Made by a program: the position numbers and the translations under genes
The notes under the pieces: model-generated
What the model saw: the letters and a program-made list of their open reading frames with translations, nothing else
Databases searched by the model: none
What the model was told of the DNA's origin: nothing
Shown: positions 1 through 18,944 of the stretch, in pieces
How the letters are laid out: each line of letters starts with the position of its first letter
How positions within the stretch are numbered: the stretch's first letter is position 1
Source: an uncultured virus (IMG/VR IMGVR_UViG_3300042509_001805)
Taxonomy: Duplodnaviria > Heunggongvirae > Uroviricota > Caudoviricetes
DNA length: 20,000 nt
IMG/VR virus record: IMGVR_UViG_3300042509_001805
Location: 57,534 to 77,533 of that record
Direction: 5' to 3' (one strand)

Positions 1-301
1 GTTTAACAGAGCCGCAAAAGAGGAAAAGGAATGGGCATCTTATTTGTTTAAGAATGGCTCGATTATAGGTCTAAACGAAACTGTACTACATCAGTACATC
101 GACTGGCTTGTAATGTCAAGACGCAAAGCGATTGGATTGCCCTATGAAAATGTTGGCAAAAATCCAATTGCAGGATGGACAGAACACTGGATGAATAGTG
201 AGGCTGTTCAAGTTGCTCCGCAAGAACATGAAATTACCTCATACAAAATAGGAGCTAGTAAAAATGATCTTGACGACATAGATTTTGGAGGCGTGTTATG
301 A
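1..301 (+). CDS. nrdB: Ribonucleotide reductase class Ia beta subunit, 3' end (begins upstream of window)
   Basis: Frame is open from base 2: FNRAAKEEKEWASYLFKNGSIIGLN...VQVAPQEHEITSY. This matches the NrdB C-terminus (EKxWAxYLFxxGSxIGLN; VQVAPQE...SY). Confidence 0.93.
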   Translation, partial: FNRAAKEEKEWASYLFKNGSIIGLNETVLHQYIDWLVMSRRKAIGLPYENVGKNPIAGWTEHWMNSEAVQVAPQEHEITSYKIGASKNDLDDIDFGGVL

Positions 302-918
302 AAGCTCTGCAAAGAACTGCGTCTGTTTTGTTTCTATCTCTTGTTTCCGTTTTTTTAATTTGTTCGAGTATTTATAGTCAAACATGTTTTATAAGGTGTG
401 AACCAGACAAGGAAACCGGAGGCGGAGCTTGCGGATCTGGCTTTTTTATTTCAAAAAATGAAATTTTAACTGCGGCCCATGTAATAAATGACGCAAATAA
501 TGTTAGAATTGAATTTGATGGAAAGTATTTTAAAGCTTTCGTTGTTAGACAAGATGCCACTAAAGATTTAGCCCTTCTAAGAATAGAAGAAGAGCATGAT
601 AAATTTTATAAACTTAGTGACTCTTTCGGTAAAGCTGACCAAAAAGTAACTTGTTTTGGTTTTCCTAGAGGTGTTTGGACCTTGTATAAGTCAAGTGGTG
701 TTATTAAGGAAGTTAATAGCGTTACAAGAGATTCTAGATATAAAGACAATCCGAGGATGGAATATGCTGTATTAATGGAAGTTACGAATGGAATGTCTGG
801 AGGACCACTTCTTACTGAAGATAAAACCGTAATAGGGGTTTTAAGCAGCAAGAATATTATTGGCGAACCAAGAGCTAATTTTATTGCTCTTGAAGATATA
901 AAAAAGTTTCTTGACTAA
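298..918 (+). CDS. Trypsin-like (S1) serine protease with N-terminal signal/TM segment
   Basis: Catalytic triad motifs LTAAHV, DLALL and GMSGGP; GSGF motif; hydrophobic N-terminus; GGAGG RBS; ATGA overlap with the nrdB stop. Confidence 0.9.
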   Translation: MKALQRTASVLFLSLVSVFLICSSIYSQTCFIRCEPDKETGGGACGSGFFISKNEILTAAHVINDANNVRIEFDGKYFKAFVVRQDATKDLALLRIEEEHDKFYKLSDSFGKADQKVTCFGFPRGVWTLYKSSGVIKEVNSVTRDSRYKDNPRMEYAVLMEVTNGMSGGPLLTEDKTVIGVLSSKNIIGEPRANFIALEDIKKFLD

Positions 919-928
919 GTAAAATAAA

Positions 929-1014
929 GCGCGGGCCAAGTGGTTGGCAGTATTTAACTTAAATGACGATTAATGTTAAATACAGCAGTGCTGGTTCGAC
1001 TCCAGCCCCTCGCC
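929..1014 (+). ncRNA. tRNA-like structured RNA (non-canonical or pseudo-tRNA)
   Basis: T-arm GCTGG-TTCGACT-CCAGC (990-1006); acceptor GCGCGGG/CCCTCGC (929-935/1007-1013, one C-U mismatch); D-arm-like GCCAA-GTGG-TTGGC (935-948); long stem GTATTTAAC/GTTAAATAC (950-958/975-983); no encoded CCA. Confidence 0.7.
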
Positions 1015-1048
1015 TTTTTAATTTTAATTTTGATTTGAGGGAAAATTT

Positions 1049-1732
1049 ATGCAAAATAAAGTTGAACTTATGAGCCCTGATGGATATTATGGAAGCGATG
1101 AAATTATTGCTTGCAGTGCGTGGACTTCTACTAGTCGCGATTTAAATGATGAAAAGCGTGGCCGTATTGGTAAACTAATTAAGATGTTGTGGGAGAATGG
1201 GCATGAAACGCCTTTTGAAAAGGGGATTGTTCACTTTCTTGTGGATACAGATATTGCTACGCACATTCATTTACTCAAACATCGCATTAGCAGTATCAAT
1301 GCTGAGTCTGCACGGTATAAAGAACTAAAAGAAGATAAGTATTATCTACCGGAAGACTGGCGAGGCATAATGGCTAAAACAAACGCATTAGTAATTGGGG
1401 ATTCTAATGATGATAAAGACTGGATAAAATTACTAGAACAATATACTAATATAGGAAATAAGTTGTATCACGATTGTTTAAAAGATTTATCGCCCGTTCT
1501 TGGTCGCAAGCGAGCCAAAGAATCGGCCCGTTTCTTCAAAACATACAACAGTCAGATTCAGAGCGACATTATGTTTAATATGCGTAGCTTTGCTAATTTT
1601 CTAAAACTAAGACTATCTCCAAACGCACAACTTGAAATCCGCGAAATCGCTCAACAAATGTTGCATTTGGTTAAGAATATTGAAGGTAATCCATTTAAGT
1701 ACACTTTAGAAGCGTGGGGATATCAACAATGA
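1049..1732 (+). CDS. thyX: Flavin-dependent thymidylate synthase
   Basis: GHETPFE, KHRISSINAESARY (ThyX RHRx7S-xRY-like), KESAR, NMRSFANFLKLR and AQLEIR motifs; GAGGG RBS. Confidence 0.92.
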   Translation: MQNKVELMSPDGYYGSDEIIACSAWTSTSRDLNDEKRGRIGKLIKMLWENGHETPFEKGIVHFLVDTDIATHIHLLKHRISSINAESARYKELKEDKYYLPEDWRGIMAKTNALVIGDSNDDKDWIKLLEQYTNIGNKLYHDCLKDLSPVLGRKRAKESARFFKTYNSQIQSDIMFNMRSFANFLKLRLSPNAQLEIREIAQQMLHLVKNIEGNPFKYTLEAWGYQQ

Positions 1733-5061: not shown

Positions 5062-5730
5062 ATGGCGAAAAAAAGGCAGGCGCAAAAACAATCAGTAAGA
5101 CCTTCTCGTAAAACATTAAAACCAAAAACAAAAAATCAAGAAAATTACATTATAGCTATGGCAGAATCAGACATAACATTTTGTTCTGGTCCAGCCGGAT
5201 CTGGTAAAACTGCGGTTGCAGTTGGTTTAGCTTGTGAATATATTCTTGCAAATAAAGTTGAAAAAATAGTTATAACTCGACCTGTTGTTGAATCTGGTAG
5301 AGGTCTTGGGTTTTTACCGGGAACTTTAACCGAAAAAGTACAACCGTATTTAGTTCCAATAATCGAAGAAATGAAACTATATCTTGGTATAGACACATAC
5401 AATTTAATGCGGGCTTCAAATATAATAGAGATTTGCCCACTAGAATATATGCGCGGAAGAAATTTTCATAATACATTTATGATTCTAGACGAAGGTCAAA
5501 ATGCTACATTCGAGCAAATAAAAATGTTTTTAACTAGAATAGGAATAAACTCCAAGGCTATAGTAAATGGCGACCTAGATCAAACTGATTTAAGAGGCGG
5601 TGATTACGGCGGGTTACATGAATGCATGAAACTTTTAGATGACTTAGAGGGTGTAGCTATTTGCAAACTCGATTATTCAGATATTGTTAGAAACGGAATA
5701 ATATCAAGGGTTTTAAGTAGACTGCGTTAA
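5062..5730 (+). CDS. phoH: PhoH-family ATPase
   Basis: GPAGSGKT, TRPVVE, LGFLPG, YMRGRNF, ILDEGQN, TRIG, GDLDQTD and DIVR motifs. Confidence 0.95.
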   Translation: MAKKRQAQKQSVRPSRKTLKPKTKNQENYIIAMAESDITFCSGPAGSGKTAVAVGLACEYILANKVEKIVITRPVVESGRGLGFLPGTLTEKVQPYLVPIIEEMKLYLGIDTYNLMRASNIIEICPLEYMRGRNFHNTFMILDEGQNATFEQIKMFLTRIGINSKAIVNGDLDQTDLRGGDYGGLHECMKLLDDLEGVAICKLDYSDIVRNGIISRVLSRLR

Positions 5731-7640: not shown

Positions 7641-8049
7641 TGCTGCGCAATACATTGCCGAGCTTGTATGTATAAGAAAATCGGAAAAGGATAACAAAGG
7701 AAGTTTAGCTTATAAGTTTTGGAATCAAACAGAAAGCTACGAAATACAAATTCGTGTAGCCAATAAACTAATAAATAAGTACGGAGAAAGAGCCGTGCTT
7801 CATTATTTAAATAGCCCTAGCGGATCGAATGTTTATTCGCTTGGGTTTTTGCATAAAAGTAAGAATTTTGTTTTACCGTTAGATTTTGTGAAAAAGGGTA
7901 TTGAAAATTCTAAGAAGATAACAGATGCCGAAGACGCAAAACCAAAAAAGATAGTAGAACAACCAACAGGCGAATACAAATCAAAACAATCATTACCAGA
8001 TAAAAAAAGTTTATTTTTCAAATTGAGGAAAGCAGATGGCAGTAACTAA
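7579..8049 (+). CDS. Hypothetical basic protein
   Basis: 156-aa ORF overlapping both neighbours. Confidence 0.7.
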   Translation: MTQKKQNTKKFSSISTGQPCSAAQYIAELVCIRKSEKDNKGSLAYKFWNQTESYEIQIRVANKLINKYGERAVLHYLNSPSGSNVYSLGFLHKSKNFVLPLDFVKKGIENSKKITDAEDAKPKKIVEQPTGEYKSKQSLPDKKSLFFKLRKADGSN

Positions 8050-10138
8050 AATACCTGATTATCTTAAAAAGTCAGCAAAAGATTATGGACAGATAATTAA
8101 AAGTGGTACAGAAGTATTAAAAGAAAAAAGCAGTTATGAAATTATTTCTGTGGGTCCAGCAATTGATATTGCTCTTGGAGGAGGAATAAAAGAAGGTAGT
8201 TGGGTTACTTTAACCGGCGATCCTAAGAGCGGAAAAGATCAGCCACTGACATCTACAGTTTATACACCAGATGGTCCTAAAACAATGGGATCATTAAAAA
8301 TTGGAGATTTGGTTTGTACTCCAGATGGCGACTTCGCGAAAATAAACGGTATTTATCCACAGGGATTAAAAGATGTTTATAGAGTTACATTTAATGATGG
8401 AACTTTTGCGGAGTGCGGGATAGACCACTTATGGAAAGTATGCAAAAATTATCACGGAAGAAATGACGAATGGGTAGTTTTACCATTGAGACAGATAATA
8501 GAAGAAGGCTTATTTTACAGCGATAGAGCAAAGTGGAAAATTCCTATATGTGAACCTGTTTATTTCGGCTGTAAAAATCTTGAAATAGATCCGTATATAC
8601 TGGGGTGCTTAATTGGCGATGGTGGGTTGTCACAAGGAACTCCTATTATTACCACATCAGATAATGAAATTTTAGAAGCTTTTAAATATTATGCAAAAAA
8701 TAATGGCTTAGAAATTCATCATAGATCAAGATATGATTATTCTATTGTTGGATATGAAAAAAATGTTAATAATTTAACTAATAAGTTAAGAACATTAAAT
8801 CTTATGGGTAAAAACTCTCATACAAAATTTATACCACAAAACTATCTTTATTCATCTATTAATGATAGATTTGAATTAATTCGTGGGCTGATGGATACTG
8901 ACGGATATAATGACAATGGTAAGTCTGCTGAATACAGCACTGTGTCATACTTATTAAGTATTCATGTGGCAGAGTTATTGCGTTCGCTTGGGTATATGGT
9001 AAAAACAAAAGAAAGAATGACAAAATGCAATGGTCAAGAATTTAAATCTTTTAGACTTTATATATCAGGCAATGATGTAAATAAGCTTTTTAAGCTTAGT
9101 CGTAAAATTTTCTATTCAAAAAGAAAAAAACCAAAATTATTCAAAACTATAAAGAAGGTTGAAGTTGTTAGAAAAGAAGAAACTCAATGTATCTTTATTA
9201 ACCACCAAGACCATCTTTATTTAACTGATAGTTTTAATGTTACTCACAATACAACTACAGCAATGCAGATAGCCGCTAATTGCCAAAAGCTTGGAAGAAA
9301 CATAATTTATATTGACGCAGAAGGAAGATTCAAGGATATGAATTTTCAAGTGGACGGACTAGATCCTGAAAAGATGCTTATTATGGCTCCAGAAGACAAA
9401 CCTATTCCAGCTGAGAAGTTTCTTGAATGGGCTTATATGATGATGAGTCACTCTGACAATTATGGGGCAGTATTGATTATTGATTCTATATCGTCGCTAA
9501 TACCAGAAAAAGAACTTGATGGAGATTTCACTGCTGGCCGCGCTGGATTACCAAAGGTTCTTTCTGTATTCACGAAGAAGGTTGGTCAGTTACTACCGAG
9601 GCAACGCGGTCTTGTTATTGCAATAACTCATTACATTGCGAATACATCCGGTTTTGGTAAAGCTAAAATGGCTGATGGTGGAAATAAAATTCAATATCAA
9701 GCTGACACAAGAATGGAAATTGCTGGCGGCGGAGAAAATACCCCGGCAGTTAAATTTTGGGAAGATGATGAAGGTAAACGAGTTGGTCAGGTAGTTAACT
9801 GGAAAATTATTTGTTCATCTATGGGACCACCGGGAGGACAGGTACAGAGTTATATCAAGTACGGCCACGGGATTGACCGAACGCAGGAAATTTTAATGCT
9901 TGCTTTAGATCTCGGTTTAATAGATAAATCCGGCGCTTGGTTTACTTGTTCTTTTATTCAACTTTATAAAGATTTAGCAAAACAAATTTTTCCAGATATA
10001 AATGTTGAAAATCAAGAAGAGTTGTTTTCAGTAAAAGGTTTTAAGTTTCAGGGGCAAAATAAACTATATGATTTTTTGAAATCTCATCCAGTTCTTGTTG
10101 ATACCCTAGAAAAGATGATAAAGGAAAACTTAACATGA
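8036..10138 (+). CDS. recA: RecA/UvsX recombinase precursor with intein (362 aa after splicing)
   Basis: IDIALGGGI; Walker A GDPKSGK|TT split by the insertion; YIDAE; Walker B IIDSIS; GGNKIQY; GIDR; KSGAWF. Confidence 0.93.
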   Translation: MAVTKIPDYLKKSAKDYGQIIKSGTEVLKEKSSYEIISVGPAIDIALGGGIKEGSWVTLTGDPKSGKDQPLTSTVYTPDGPKTMGSLKIGDLVCTPDGDFAKINGIYPQGLKDVYRVTFNDGTFAECGIDHLWKVCKNYHGRNDEWVVLPLRQIIEEGLFYSDRAKWKIPICEPVYFGCKNLEIDPYILGCLIGDGGLSQGTPIITTSDNEILEAFKYYAKNNGLEIHHRSRYDYSIVGYEKNVNNLTNKLRTLNLMGKNSHTKFIPQNYLYSSINDRFELIRGLMDTDGYNDNGKSAEYSTVSYLLSIHVAELLRSLGYMVKTKERMTKCNGQEFKSFRLYISGNDVNKLFKLSRKIFYSKRKKPKLFKTIKKVEVVRKEETQCIFINHQDHLYLTDSFNVTHNTTTAMQIAANCQKLGRNIIYIDAEGRFKDMNFQVDGLDPEKMLIMAPEDKPIPAEKFLEWAYMMMSHSDNYGAVLIIDSISSLIPEKELDGDFTAGRAGLPKVLSVFTKKVGQLLPRQRGLVIAITHYIANTSGFGKAKMADGGNKIQYQADTRMEIAGGGENTPAVKFWEDDEGKRVGQVVNWKIICSSMGPPGGQVQSYIKYGHGIDRTQEILMLALDLGLIDKSGAWFTCSFIQLYKDLAKQIFPDINVENQEELFSVKGFKFQGQNKLYDFLKSHPVLVDTLEKMIKENLT
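8237..9250 (+). mobile_element. Class 3 intein (338 aa) with LAGLIDADG homing endonuclease
   Basis: Block A DQPLTSTVYTPDG; block B ECGIDHLW; LAGLIDADG motifs LGCLIGDG and IRGLMDTDG; block F TQCI; block G VTHN followed by Thr+1. Confidence 0.92.
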
Positions 10139-16644: not shown

Positions 16645-17392
16645 AATAGTTCTTTTAACTGAGTTTTATAAGTCAAAATTCGAAGAAAGAAACAAAGAGT
16701 TGCTGGACTCTTTGCAAAGAAATATTGATTGTGAACATATCAAAAAAATTGTTTTGTTTTATGAAAATAGTCTAGACGAATATCCAGATATAGCATTCAG
16801 CCCAAAGATTGAAATTGCTTATACAAAATCAAGAATGAAGTTTGCAGACTATTTTAATTACTACAATAGTAACCTATCTGGACATATTTGCATAATTGCC
16901 AACAGTGATATCTACTTTGATGATTCAATAAAACATATTCACAACATCAGAGAAAATGAATTTTTATGTATAACCAGATGGAATCGAAATGAGCTTCAGG
17001 GACATGACGAATATAGTCAAGATGTGTGGGTTTTTAGAAAACTAATACCGCAAAAAATGGTTGATTGTTCAGGTTTTTACCTTGGCAAACAGCAATGCGA
17101 TAATAGAATATCTTTTGTGGCGATGAAGAATGGATTTGATTTAATTAATCCGTGCCATTTAGTCAAATGTCAACATCTACATAAAGACCCAGATAAAATC
17201 ACTTACAACAAAAAAGAGAACTTTAAAAATTTACTATATTTGTCAACGGTTAAACCGTCTGATAAAATTGAATATACCGAGAATAATGTTTGTTCATATT
17301 GGGCAGATTCTGGTGGAACTAGGTATTGCGGATCATGGTATGTTAACTTTTGCAGGAATGAATTAAATGACTTGGAATCCAATCAATTGTAA
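16616..17392 (+). CDS. Putative GT-A-fold glycosyltransferase-like protein
   Basis: Hydrophobic strand plus DxxxD-type motif IIANSDIYFD, then SQDVWVF, CDNRI and a late HLH; TTG start after AAGGA. Confidence 0.55.
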   Translation: MDTTKLPEVKIVLLTEFYKSKFEERNKELLDSLQRNIDCEHIKKIVLFYENSLDEYPDIAFSPKIEIAYTKSRMKFADYFNYYNSNLSGHICIIANSDIYFDDSIKHIHNIRENEFLCITRWNRNELQGHDEYSQDVWVFRKLIPQKMVDCSGFYLGKQQCDNRISFVAMKNGFDLINPCHLVKCQHLHKDPDKITYNKKENFKNLLYLSTVKPSDKIEYTENNVCSYWADSGGTRYCGSWYVNFCRNELNDLESNQL

Positions 17393-18944
17393 AACACATT
17401 TTAGCTTGCAGCACGGTTTTTGCAAACCTGATAAACTTTCTAAAAAATGCGCTGATTATGGTTACACATCTTGCGGAATCGCAGATTTTGGAACCTTGTC
17501 TGGTGCAGTTGACTTTCATCAAAATTGCACTAAATATGGTATCAAGCCAATAATTGGGTGCGAATTTGATGGATACATTCTTTATGCTAAAAACAAAAAC
17601 GGATGGTTTGACTTGGTTAAATATGTATCAAACCAAACACTGGATGTTTTAAAAGAAATAGCAAAAAATGGAAATGTACTTTGTGTAACACCATCTGTAA
17701 ACGGTTTTGCTAATCTATTTAAATCAAACCATATTCAACTAGATTATCCAAGTGAAGCTATCTATTATGTGGAAAAAAATGATGCAGATTGTCATAGAAT
17801 TATGCTTTGTGGTAAGCTAAAAACAACACTAAAGAAAATTAAATTACTGGAAGTAAACGAGTACAGCCAGTTTTTTGATGATAATGACAGATGGTATTTA
17901 CCATCCAATGATGAAATTCTAGACAGGTCTAAAAATATCGCTAAAATAGTTGACGCTTGCGAAGCTTACGAGCTTGCTGGACCTCCTATGCTTCCTGCTT
18001 TTGAATGTCCAACTGGCTATGATGAAGACGAGTATTTGACTGAACTTTGTAGAAGTGGCTGGAAAAATAAATTAGTTCCATTCAAAAAAATATCAACAGA
18101 AGAACAAAAGAGTATTTACGCAGAAAGAGTAAAGCATGAACTTAAGGTTATATTCAAGGCTAAACTTTCTGGTTATTTCTTGATTGTTCAAGATATCATT
18201 CGATGGGTTAAATCAAAAGGTTGGCTTGCTGGTCCGGGACGAGGCAGTGCCGCAGGATGCCTTATTTCTTATCTACTTGATATAACTGAAGTAGATCCAA
18301 TAGAATATGATTTGATCTTCGAAAGGTTTTATAATGAAGGAAGAAACACCGATGGTAACGTGGCTATTCCAGATATTGATATGGATATACCAGCCGAACA
18401 CCGCGACGAAGTTATTGATTATATCAAACAAAAATATGGAGCGTCTAACGTATCTCAAATGATAACATTTGGAAGACTGCAAGGCAGAGCGGCCATAAAA
18501 GAAGTTCTTAGAATCAATGAGGCTGTGTCATTCGCAGAAATGAATGCTATAACAGATAGTATTCCTGACGAAGCTAAAATTTCTGACCAGTTAGAGCTTA
18601 TGGAAGAAAAGTCAATCATCAAGTGGGCGTTAGAAAATGAACCAGATAATTTAAGGAATTGGTGCTTCTATAATGACAATGAAAAGCTTGATGGTCCTTT
18701 GGCGAATTTGTTTGAACAAGCTATAAAAATAGAAGGAACAAATAAGTCTCAAGGTAAACACCCTGCTGGTGTTATTATATCGAAACACAAGCTAAATGAA
18801 GTTTGTCCAATGACAAGTGATAAGTCTGGAGATTCTATTGTTGCTTTTGAAATGAATGCTTTGGAATACCAAGGCCATATAAAATTTGATGTTCTGGGAA
18901 TTGATTTACTTTCTAAGATAATGGAGATTTGTGAAAATGACTGA
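17367..18944 (+). CDS. dnaE: DNA polymerase III alpha subunit, N-terminal part only (PHP plus palm/thumb)
   Basis: THFSL, IKPIIGCE, GYFLIVQD, GPGRGSAAG, LIFERF, PDIDMD, KHPAGVII and IKFDVLG; ends 14 aa after KFDVLG. Confidence 0.92.
   Translation: MTWNPINCKTHFSLQHGFCKPDKLSKKCADYGYTSCGIADFGTLSGAVDFHQNCTKYGIKPIIGCEFDGYILYAKNKNGWFDLVKYVSNQTLDVLKEIAKNGNVLCVTPSVNGFANLFKSNHIQLDYPSEAIYYVEKNDADCHRIMLCGKLKTTLKKIKLLEVNEYSQFFDDNDRWYLPSNDEILDRSKNIAKIVDACEAYELAGPPMLPAFECPTGYDEDEYLTELCRSGWKNKLVPFKKISTEEQKSIYAERVKHELKVIFKAKLSGYFLIVQDIIRWVKSKGWLAGPGRGSAAGCLISYLLDITEVDPIEYDLIFERFYNEGRNTDGNVAIPDIDMDIPAEHRDEVIDYIKQKYGASNVSQMITFGRLQGRAAIKEVLRINEAVSFAEMNAITDSIPDEAKISDQLELMEEKSIIKWALENEPDNLRNWCFYNDNEKLDGPLANLFEQAIKIEGTNKSQGKHPAGVIISKHKLNEVCPMTSDKSGDSIVAFEMNALEYQGHIKFDVLGIDLLSKIMEICEND

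Follow-up and report, generated by a model that had tools for sequence, protein, structure and literature searches.

Phage tRNA genes are usually regarded as aids to codon usage or to counter-defence. A locus in the IMG/VR virus record IMGVR_UViG_3300042509_001805 (Caudoviricetes) raises the question of whether a tRNA-shaped RNA inside a phage operon is a tRNA, the remains of one, or something else that is maintained. The DNA analysed here, called the window, is a stretch of 20,000 nucleotides (nt; positions 57,534 to 77,533 of the record) that forms the final 20 kb of the 77.5-kb record. The element in question occupies positions 929 to 1014 on its plus strand, between a protease gene and thyX. 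It folds as a tRNA-like cloverleaf, the fold is conserved in a related phage, and no anticodon is conserved. Since one related phage also has the element, it is probably a working tRNA look-alike and not a dead tRNA gene. Our preferred interpretation, to which we assign a probability of roughly 0.45, is that of a non-decoding tRNA mimic under selection, compact in its core, which is probably cotranscribed with the operon and freed from the transcript by RNase P and RNase Z.

Every feature reported for this DNA in an earlier note is present in the letters. The note had described a noncanonical tRNA-like RNA with an intact elbow, and both halves of that elbow, a perfect T arm and a GG in the D loop, were found and are kept in the relative. 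The element shares with canonical tRNAs a 5-bp T stem, a T loop of the form UUCRANY, G18G19, and an acceptor of seven facing positions. The acceptor is not the clean 7-bp helix that had been described because of a C932·U1010 mismatch, which leaves six Watson-Crick pairs. The absence of a U8-R9 linker and of CCA was borne out: the D hairpin begins right after G935, its loop consists of GUGG only, and C1014 is followed by TTTTT. Both the U8/N9 linker and the A14/R15 of the canonical tertiary core are missing.

In the position of the anticodon arm there is a long AU-rich arm. Its 9-bp base stem, GTATTTAAC/GTTAAATAC (950-958/975-983), is perfect and is the only solid helix of the arm. The roughly 13-bp arm of the earlier note can be drawn by adding a TTAA/TTAA extension and a 7-nt loop, ATGACGA (963-969), with T974 bulged, but the minimum-free-energy (MFE) fold uses neither. 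The D hairpin, by comparison, is present in the MFE structures of both copies. Two core folds suit both copies equally. The first combines a 0-nt linker with a 4-bp D stem and a 5-nt variable loop; the second, the alternative with a 3-nt linker that had been pointed out before, has a 1-nt linker, a 3-bp D stem, three additional pairs in the arm, and a 3-nt variable loop. No open reading frame (ORF) of at least 50 amino acids (aa) spans the element on either strand, and a protein-coding reading was rejected for this reason.

The evidence that carries the interpretation comes from relatives. Among 80 loci with related thyX genes, the element was found in the identical contig only. When the protease gene, which is rarer than thyX, was used as bait, four lineages were obtained. 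One of them, a 104-kb contig with a protease 79-80% identical to that of the window (L090), carries a 118-nt homologue of the element 12 nt past the protease stop codon. Between the two copies, the D hairpin is identical at 12/12 positions and the T arm at 16/17, the sole change being at loop position 59. The base of the long arm, GTATTTA/TAAATA, is also conserved (7/7 and 6/7 identical). The L090 acceptor, GCGAGAG/CTCTCGC, is a perfect 7-bp helix in which pair 6:67 has changed from G-C to A-U on both sides and pair 4:69 is A-U, as against C·U in the window.

All four helices are kept in both copies, with 46/48 pair cells paired (96%) versus 35-48% when partners were slid. The stems differ at 4/46 positions: two make up the compensatory pair, a third preserves a G·U, and the fourth converts the mismatch into a pair. 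The linkers and the distal arm differ at 14/29 positions (Fisher P = 1.7e-4 versus the stems). As a neutral reference, the fourfold sites of two upstream genes were 40/63 (63%) and 67/100 (67%) identical, and the probability of at most 4/46 differences at a 35% neutral difference rate is 4e-5. Canonical tRNAs common to both phages are 74/74, 56/73, and 68/74 identical, which puts the conservation of the element's core on a par with that of a working tRNA. The window copy folds modestly better than shuffled sequences (z = -1.9; in a second run z = -2.2, with 6/200 shuffles as good), and the L090 copy folds considerably better (z = -3.8, 0/200 shuffles as good). The real support for the element is the L090 homologue.

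The same comparison bears on whether the element is a relic, that is, what is left of a tRNA gene, perhaps one with a compact core, that lost its anticodon arm to indels and is now drifting or kept by chance. Such an origin would account for the missing usable anticodon, the 32-nt indel between the two copies, the acceptor mismatch in the window copy, and the absence of the element from other lineages. It would also fit the presence of other odd tRNA-like genes in the phage, such as an aberrant tRNA-Arg(UCU)-like gene, while the relative has a canonical tRNA-Arg(TCT). However, the stems, D hairpin, and T arm are conserved far above the neutral level (4/46 versus about 35% differences), and the few stem changes all preserve or improve pairing; a relic is thus unlikely. 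The earlier note had taken the retained pairing as an argument against random decay, with canonical tRNAs in relatives and uncompensated indels here as the opposite outcome. The relatives do not show that outcome: the sole relative with anything at this place has the same noncanonical element with a compensatory acceptor pair. As to a parent, no good alignment to any tRNA of the phage was found. The tRNA origin cannot be assigned because the 24-mer that covers the T arm and acceptor is common to phage tRNA-Met, tRNA-Cys, and tRNA-Leu.

Several observations weigh against a selected mimic. There are two sequence variants of the element in all, in this phage and in L090, and covariation therefore rests on a single compensatory pair. 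A homologue was found, and one pair is changed on both sides, but 253/500 shuffles reached the observed score; with two sequences, the covariation test proposed earlier is without power. Neither core fold is favoured over the other. The window copy has the acceptor C·U mismatch and an A at position -1, and the U-tract is not conserved, the L090 trailer being CUUAUUAAAUUUG, with no U-run. In two lineages with the same protease (L007 and L091; 72% identical), the place of the element is taken by about 30 nt of unrelated sequence, followed by the conserved thyX leader, so the element is dispensable. In addition, a short contig from a lake sequencing run departs from the window exactly at the 5' edge of the element, at position 928, and may represent a further relative without it.

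Broader searches returned no third copy. Exact and degenerate DNA patterns in IMG/VR identified this phage and L090 only, among the matches listed. A scan of 185,579 prokaryote genomes gave two loci, both ordinary tRNAs (Arg and Val), and a metagenome scan with the protease alignment gave one locus, which lacks the element. Only T-arm-sized matches were obtained by blastn against GenBank phages. A model search over 312,770 bases (61 of the 80 thyX loci and others) yielded three weak hits and no homologue.

Judged from its sequence, the element is not a decoding tRNA, because the arm is too long and no loop is conserved. The possibility weighed here was an aminoacylated tRNA of odd shape, for example, tRNA-Val(GAC). 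With the default settings, ARAGORN called no tRNA and no transfer-messenger RNA (tmRNA) in the window. With an 80% threshold, it called the element tRNA-Val(gac) with a score of 91.0, and the loop AUGACGA does have U at position 33. But this is one of 41 extra low-score calls in the 77.5-kb genome record (50 calls versus 9 at default), and the arm is about 13 bp long instead of 5-6 bp. The U33-GAC-G37 geometry given in the earlier note holds for the window copy and is not conserved in L090. There, ATGACGA has no structural counterpart, the distal arm differs by the indel and several substitutions, and the arm forms a longer irregular rod of 19 bp or more. The idea of a meaningful anticodon had to be given up accordingly: a 5-bp stem with a 7-nt loop, U33, and a conserved anticodon is not what the two copies have, and we give a decoding role almost no credence. 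On the L090 copy, ARAGORN found nothing at a 70% threshold, with tmRNA mode included. When introns were allowed, it found none in the window copy and a different, forced tRNA-Ile model in L090. An intron-containing tRNA was rejected, since in a manual check no splice of the arm yielded a 7-nt loop common to both copies.

Rfam gave no match to the element at the gathering threshold. At E values up to 10, the only match was tRNA-Sec (RF01852), with 16.8 bits versus a cut-off of 47; the L090 copy had no Rfam match at E values up to 1. The element resembles tRNA-Sec in its 4-nt D loop and its T loop UUCGACU. Its acceptor/T stack has 7/5 geometry, whereas that of tRNA-Sec has 13 bp (8/5), and its D stem has 4 bp instead of 6; the linker measures 3-6 nt, and both a long variable arm and a UCA anticodon are missing. 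On these grounds, tRNA-Sec was rejected.

The U-tract that directly follows the element in the window (TTTTT, 1015-1019) and the thyX gene downstream, both described earlier and both found, raise the possibility of a cis-acting terminator or attenuator, in which the cloverleaf, with its GC-rich acceptor and U-run, would stop or modulate transcription into thyX. The C and UUUUU lie directly 3' of the acceptor, and T-runs also end other tRNA-like elements of the phage (B, C, and D). However, a consensus scan called no terminator there, and the 35-nt gap between the element and thyX holds no promoter, so that efficient termination would silence thyX. L007, the closest phage with the window-type thyX, has the same gene and the same leader, TAATTTTAATTTTGA, without the element. 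In L090, the element lacks the U-tract and precedes a mere N-terminal remnant of the window-type thyX, 17 codons long (MENSVELLGYY...). The proposal of a cis-attenuator for thyX is contradicted by these two phages, and regulation in cis is very unlikely. A thyX riboswitch or leader was likewise rejected, as there is no Rfam match and the element is missing ahead of the same thyX in L007. The thyX locus of L090 (L090:2260-3300), downstream of its copy of the element, is thus remodelled: the thyX remnant is succeeded by an ORF that by eye resembles a GIY-YIG-type homing endonuclease, and then by a different full-length thyX.

A mimic of the tmRNA-type domain, whose tRNA top half, set on a long helix, would target SmpB or stalled ribosomes, was suggested by the topology: an acceptor, a short 5' element with GG, a long helix, a short linker, and a T arm. 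The phage also encodes its own tmRNA, i.e., it is concerned with trans-translation. Compared with the tRNA-like domain of tmRNA (RF00023), the element shares the acceptor and T arm on a long helix, the short linker, and the variable interior. It differs in that pair 3:70 is G-C in both copies and not G·U, there is no tag reading frame and no pseudoknot, and the 5' element is a hairpin and not an open D loop. In addition, there is no Rfam tmRNA match, the tmRNA mode of ARAGORN stayed empty for L090, and the element has no sequence likeness to the phage's own, genuine tmRNA. A tmRNA-type function, one of the options raised earlier, is hence highly improbable.

The closest structural parallels are compact-core tRNAs. 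According to a review, the tRNA-Pyl of Methanomethylophilus alvus is a functional tRNA in which the linker from acceptor to D stem is 0 nt and the D loop measures 4 nt; compact-core tRNAs, which include tRNA-Pyl of this type and mammalian mitochondrial tRNA-Ser(UCN), decode with a 7-nt loop on a 6-bp anticodon stem (PMC7609411). The element resembles them in having 0-1 nt between the acceptor and D stems, a D loop of 4 nt, and a lengthened helix in the anticodon position. The 0-1-nt linker (0, or 1 in the alternative fold) and a D loop within the 4-5 nt of this class are found in both copies. The 6-bp anticodon stem, the 7-nt decoding loop, and the 3-nt variable loop are not, except that the last occurs in the alternative fold. 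The arm of 9-13 bp (19 bp or more in L090), in contrast to those tRNAs, has no conserved loop and for this reason cannot reach a codon. The element keeps the GG and the TΨC that tRNA-Pyl lacks in that description, as its G18G19 and T-loop consensus are like those of mitochondrial tRNA-Ser(UCN). Because the compact core matches that of M. alvus tRNA-Pyl and the GG and T loop match those of mitochondrial tRNA-Ser(UCN), a 0-nt linker is compatible with an L shape.

Among noncoding RNAs, YrlA-type Y RNAs of bacteria and phages contain a tRNA-like module with a T arm and a D arm (PMC4201824). There, the module of Mycobacterium smegmatis YrlA is cut by RNase P and gains CCA, with a proposed role in RNA protection or in recruiting tRNA enzymes. 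The same text states that YrlA genes adjoin Ro60, that the RNA has a Ro-binding helix with the motif GNCGAAN0-1G, and that most have 5' and 3' ends away from the acceptor stem (PMC4201824). The element is also noncoding, with a tRNA-like T arm and D arm. Unlike the YrlA RNAs of that account, it has no Rfam match, and no TROVE/Ro60 domain was found among 133 ORFs across the 148-kb genome, in a Pfam scan of ORFs from 60-80 aa upward that lie within the ends of a locus; YrlA and Y RNA were rejected. In the available extracts of the literature on phage tRNA-like RNAs and non-decoding tRNA mimics (YrlA, plant-virus tRNA-like structures, and reviews), no such element is described.

If the element is a selected tRNA mimic, its parts suggest how it would be processed. 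What is kept are the parts that tRNA-handling enzymes use: a 12-bp stack of acceptor and T stem, a T loop matching the consensus, and a D hairpin with a GG capable of forming the elbow. The anticodon arm, by comparison, is replaced by a long rod variable in length and sequence. The sequence prerequisites of an RNase P and RNase Z substrate are present, namely, the 12-bp stack, the elbow, no CCA, and U after the discriminator. CCA is encoded in 0/9 canonical tRNAs of the phage and TT directly follows 8/9, so that a missing CCA and a U-rich trailer are the local norm for tRNA genes. A promoter scan found no sigma-70-like site upstream of the element on the plus strand, whereas stand-alone small RNA genes of the same phage have promoters (tRNA-Lys, TTGACA-17-TATGAT; gene C, TTGACA-17-TATAAT). 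Having no promoter of its own, the element would have to be cut from the operon transcript.

Transcription would occur within the nucleotide-metabolism operon around the element, which comprises ribonucleotide reductase, the protease, and thyX. Host RNase P is predicted to cleave at G929, and an RNase Z-type activity or exonucleases would trim after C1014. The host CCA-adding enzyme would then finish the 3' end, as must hold for the phage's own CCA-less tRNAs. Such processing would separate the protease part of the operon mRNA from the thyX part and would set free a stable RNA about 86 nt long (about 118 nt in the relative), any activity of which is putative.

The use of a tRNA top half as a handle for RNase P and RNase Z is known from plant mitochondrial t-elements, the mascRNA of MALAT1, and the tRNA-miRNA transcripts of herpesvirus MHV68. 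The C4 RNAs of phages P1 and P7 and the CI RNA of P4, which are matured by RNase P, and engineered tRNA scaffolds follow the same principle. Such handles direct the cleavage of a longer transcript or lend stability to an RNA attached to them. They are unrelated to the element in sequence and host, and the processing of the element is predicted. To our knowledge, no such handle with a compact core is known in an operon of a tailed phage.

The released RNA might instead act in trans as a decoy, titrating a host factor that reads the tRNA top half or elbow and not the anticodon. Candidate targets are a defence toxin acting on tRNA acceptor ends and a tRNA-modifying, tRNA-sensing, or ribosome-associated factor. 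Conservation limited to the acceptor, T arm, and D hairpin, with a drifting bottom half, agrees with this proposal, as does the heavy investment of the phage in translation RNAs (9 tRNAs and a tmRNA). On the other hand, there is no known partner: no tRNA-related enzyme, Ro60/TROVE, or SmpB was found among the 133 ORFs scanned. The element is lacking in L007 and L091, and no phage precedent for such a decoy turned up in the literature-search listings. A decoy is therefore quite unlikely. An antisense role of the variable arm was rejected, the longest complementary runs in the phage's own genome being 11 nt, at or below the distribution for shuffled queries, which has its mode at 11 nt. On balance, the tRNA-mimic interpretation stands, and the comparative support it has from one relative is moderate.

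The coordinates of the features are collected in Table 1. The protease stop codon lies 10 nt upstream of the element. The phage with the element was seen in three near-identical IMG/VR contigs, and a near-identical complete genome of 148,313 bp with terminal repeats is present in IMG/VR. All of the sequencing runs listed as holding the stretch (24/24) are DNA metagenomes from lake water, and the element is unchanged in all three lake runs that cover it.

Table 1. Features of the tRNA-like element, its neighbouring genes, and similar cloverleaves at other loci (window positions unless a locus is named)
Feature	Position	Strand	Description
Acceptor 5' strand, GCGCGGG	929..935	+	Pairs with 1007-1013
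D-like hairpin, CCAA-GUGG-UUGG	936..947	+	12 nt; abuts the acceptor; 4-nt loop ends in GG
Linker, CA (UG in L090)	948..949	+	Lengthens the long arm in the alternative fold
Long AU-rich arm	950..983	+	34 nt; anticodon-arm position; 9-bp base stem, optional extension, loop
Variable-loop-like linker, AGCAGU	984..989	+	5 nt (985-989) in the first fold, A984 closing the arm; 3 nt in the alternative
T arm	990..1006	+	Stem GCUGG/CCAGC, 5 bp; loop UUCGACU, 7 nt; perfect; closing G53-C61 pair
Acceptor 3' strand, CCCUCGC	1007..1013	+	Pairs with 929-935
Discriminator-position C	1014	+	C in both copies; CCA not encoded
U-rich trailer	1015..1032	+	UUUUU (1015-1019), then AAUUUUAAUUUU; not kept in L090
Trypsin-like serine protease gene	298..918	+	206 aa; secreted or membrane; Pfam Trypsin_2, E 1.2e-20
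thyX, flavin-dependent thymidylate synthase gene	1049..1732	+	Pfam Thy1, E 2.1e-31
ARAGORN-negative cloverleaves	L261:346-425, L256:311-425, L259:400-512 (-)		7-bp acceptor, 0-3-nt linker, perfect T arm; z -2.3 to -3.0

The element could belong to a wider, undescribed class of phage RNAs in which tRNA bodies, made up of acceptor, T arm, and compact D hairpin, carry a freely evolving rod in place of the anticodon arm, although we consider this doubtful. Fifteen IMG/VR loci contain its T-arm/acceptor 24-mer; four of them are the two phages, and seven are canonical tRNAs in the position of the element. Another, L250, holds a tRNA-like gene whose D arm is normal and which carries a long insert. 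The hints toward a class come from three unrelated, GC-rich loci (L261, L256, and L259), which likewise combine an acceptor and a T arm with a small 5' hairpin and a long arm, and from at least two further genes of the phage, B and C, which are conserved or bear a promoter. The three loci score 22-33 bits in the element model, largely owing to the 24-mer they share, as even an ordinary tRNA reaches about 21 bits. If such a class exists, it would be selected for tRNA-like processing and stability and would perform a non-decoding job, such as soaking up host factors or toxins that read the top half. The L256 cloverleaf lies 5 nt upstream of an odd tRNA-Cys(aca) call.

Gene B (G000 39556-39652, L101:77-173) lies about 75 nt past the tmRNA gene of the phage and has a homologue at L036:2007-2107. 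It has an acceptor GGGAAAG/CTTTCCC, a perfect T arm, and a 5-bp stem with a 6-nt loop, UGAGUC; a region of 44-48 nt starting with UGAUGAUAAAGACGCU replaces the D arm. Its Rfam tRNA score of 28.6 bits is just below the cut-off of 29. A phage that is more distant also keeps the gene, its stem changed in a compensatory way from GCUCC/GGAGC to GUUCC/GGAAC. Gene C is a small RNA gene (G000 20336-20469, L098) whose TTGACA-17-TATAAT promoter ends about 6 nt upstream. It consists of a 6-bp terminal stem, GTGAGC/GCTCAC, a T-arm-like hairpin with GTTCGATTC, and a structured interior of about 95 nt, followed by A and TTTTTT.

The tmRNA of the phage (G000 39191-39479, L106:19191-19479) matches Rfam with 77.1 bits and was missed by ARAGORN. 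Its T stem has compensatory changes, and CCA is not encoded. The tmRNA of the relative (G002 22910-23199) matches with 102.4 bits, and ARAGORN gives the tag GKNTLALAA. The aberrant tRNA-Arg(UCU)-like gene is 95 nt long (G000 25859-25953, L099) and was called by ARAGORN at the 80% threshold only; its anticodon arm, AAAGC-CUUCUAA-GCUUU, is good, but the D region is degenerate and the variable region long. The canonical tRNA-Arg(TCT) of the relative is at G002 5321-5397, where the genomes do not align, so homologous placement is not established. When introns were allowed, ARAGORN called G000 29372-29901 (L100) a tRNA-Leu(CAA) with a 443-nt insert. The insert has a weak Rfam group I intron match (19.9 bits versus a cut-off of 50; E 0.048) and holds three more T-arm-like hairpins; at the syntenic position, the relative has a tRNA-Leu(TAA) that contains no intron.

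The nine canonical tRNAs of the phage lie mostly in one cluster. Its protein genes include those for ribonucleotide reductase, ThyX, PhoH, MazG, RecA with an intein, DnaB, primase, DNA polymerase III alpha, and two sigma factors. At G000 38153-39190 (L106:18153-19190), the phage encodes a DUF1559 (SBP_bac_10) protein (E 5.8e-49) whose N terminus bears a methylation motif of the N-methyl pilin type. This family is typical of Planctomycetes, a hint that the host is a planctomycete. The recA gene (window 8036-10138) carries a LAGLIDADG/Hom_end intein-type insert, with the endonuclease domains at residues 266-351 and the RecA domains at residues 405-638. DNA polymerase III alpha is seemingly split, with the PHP domain and polymerase core in one ORF (window 17367-18944) and the HhH and OB-fold in a second ORF about 3 kb downstream (G001 101362-102540, L117:1362-2540). 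A gene for an RNase T-like exonuclease (window 19602 onward) lies between the two.

Non-decoding RNAs derived from tRNAs are already known as a kind, and the form of this element is a variant thereof. Here, such genes escape the usual annotation software, so they are probably commoner in phage genomes than is apparent. The element is short and its predicted cleavage sites are exact, which makes it an easily testable case. The compact core of tRNA-Pyl, with its 0-nt linker and 4-nt D loop, is now seen in a phage of a freshwater bacterium, with the ordinary GG/T-loop elbow retained. A conserved tRNA body that does not decode would represent a different use of the tRNA fold by phages, either as a cutting and stabilising handle for RNase P and RNase Z built into an operon or as a mimic of the tRNA top half.

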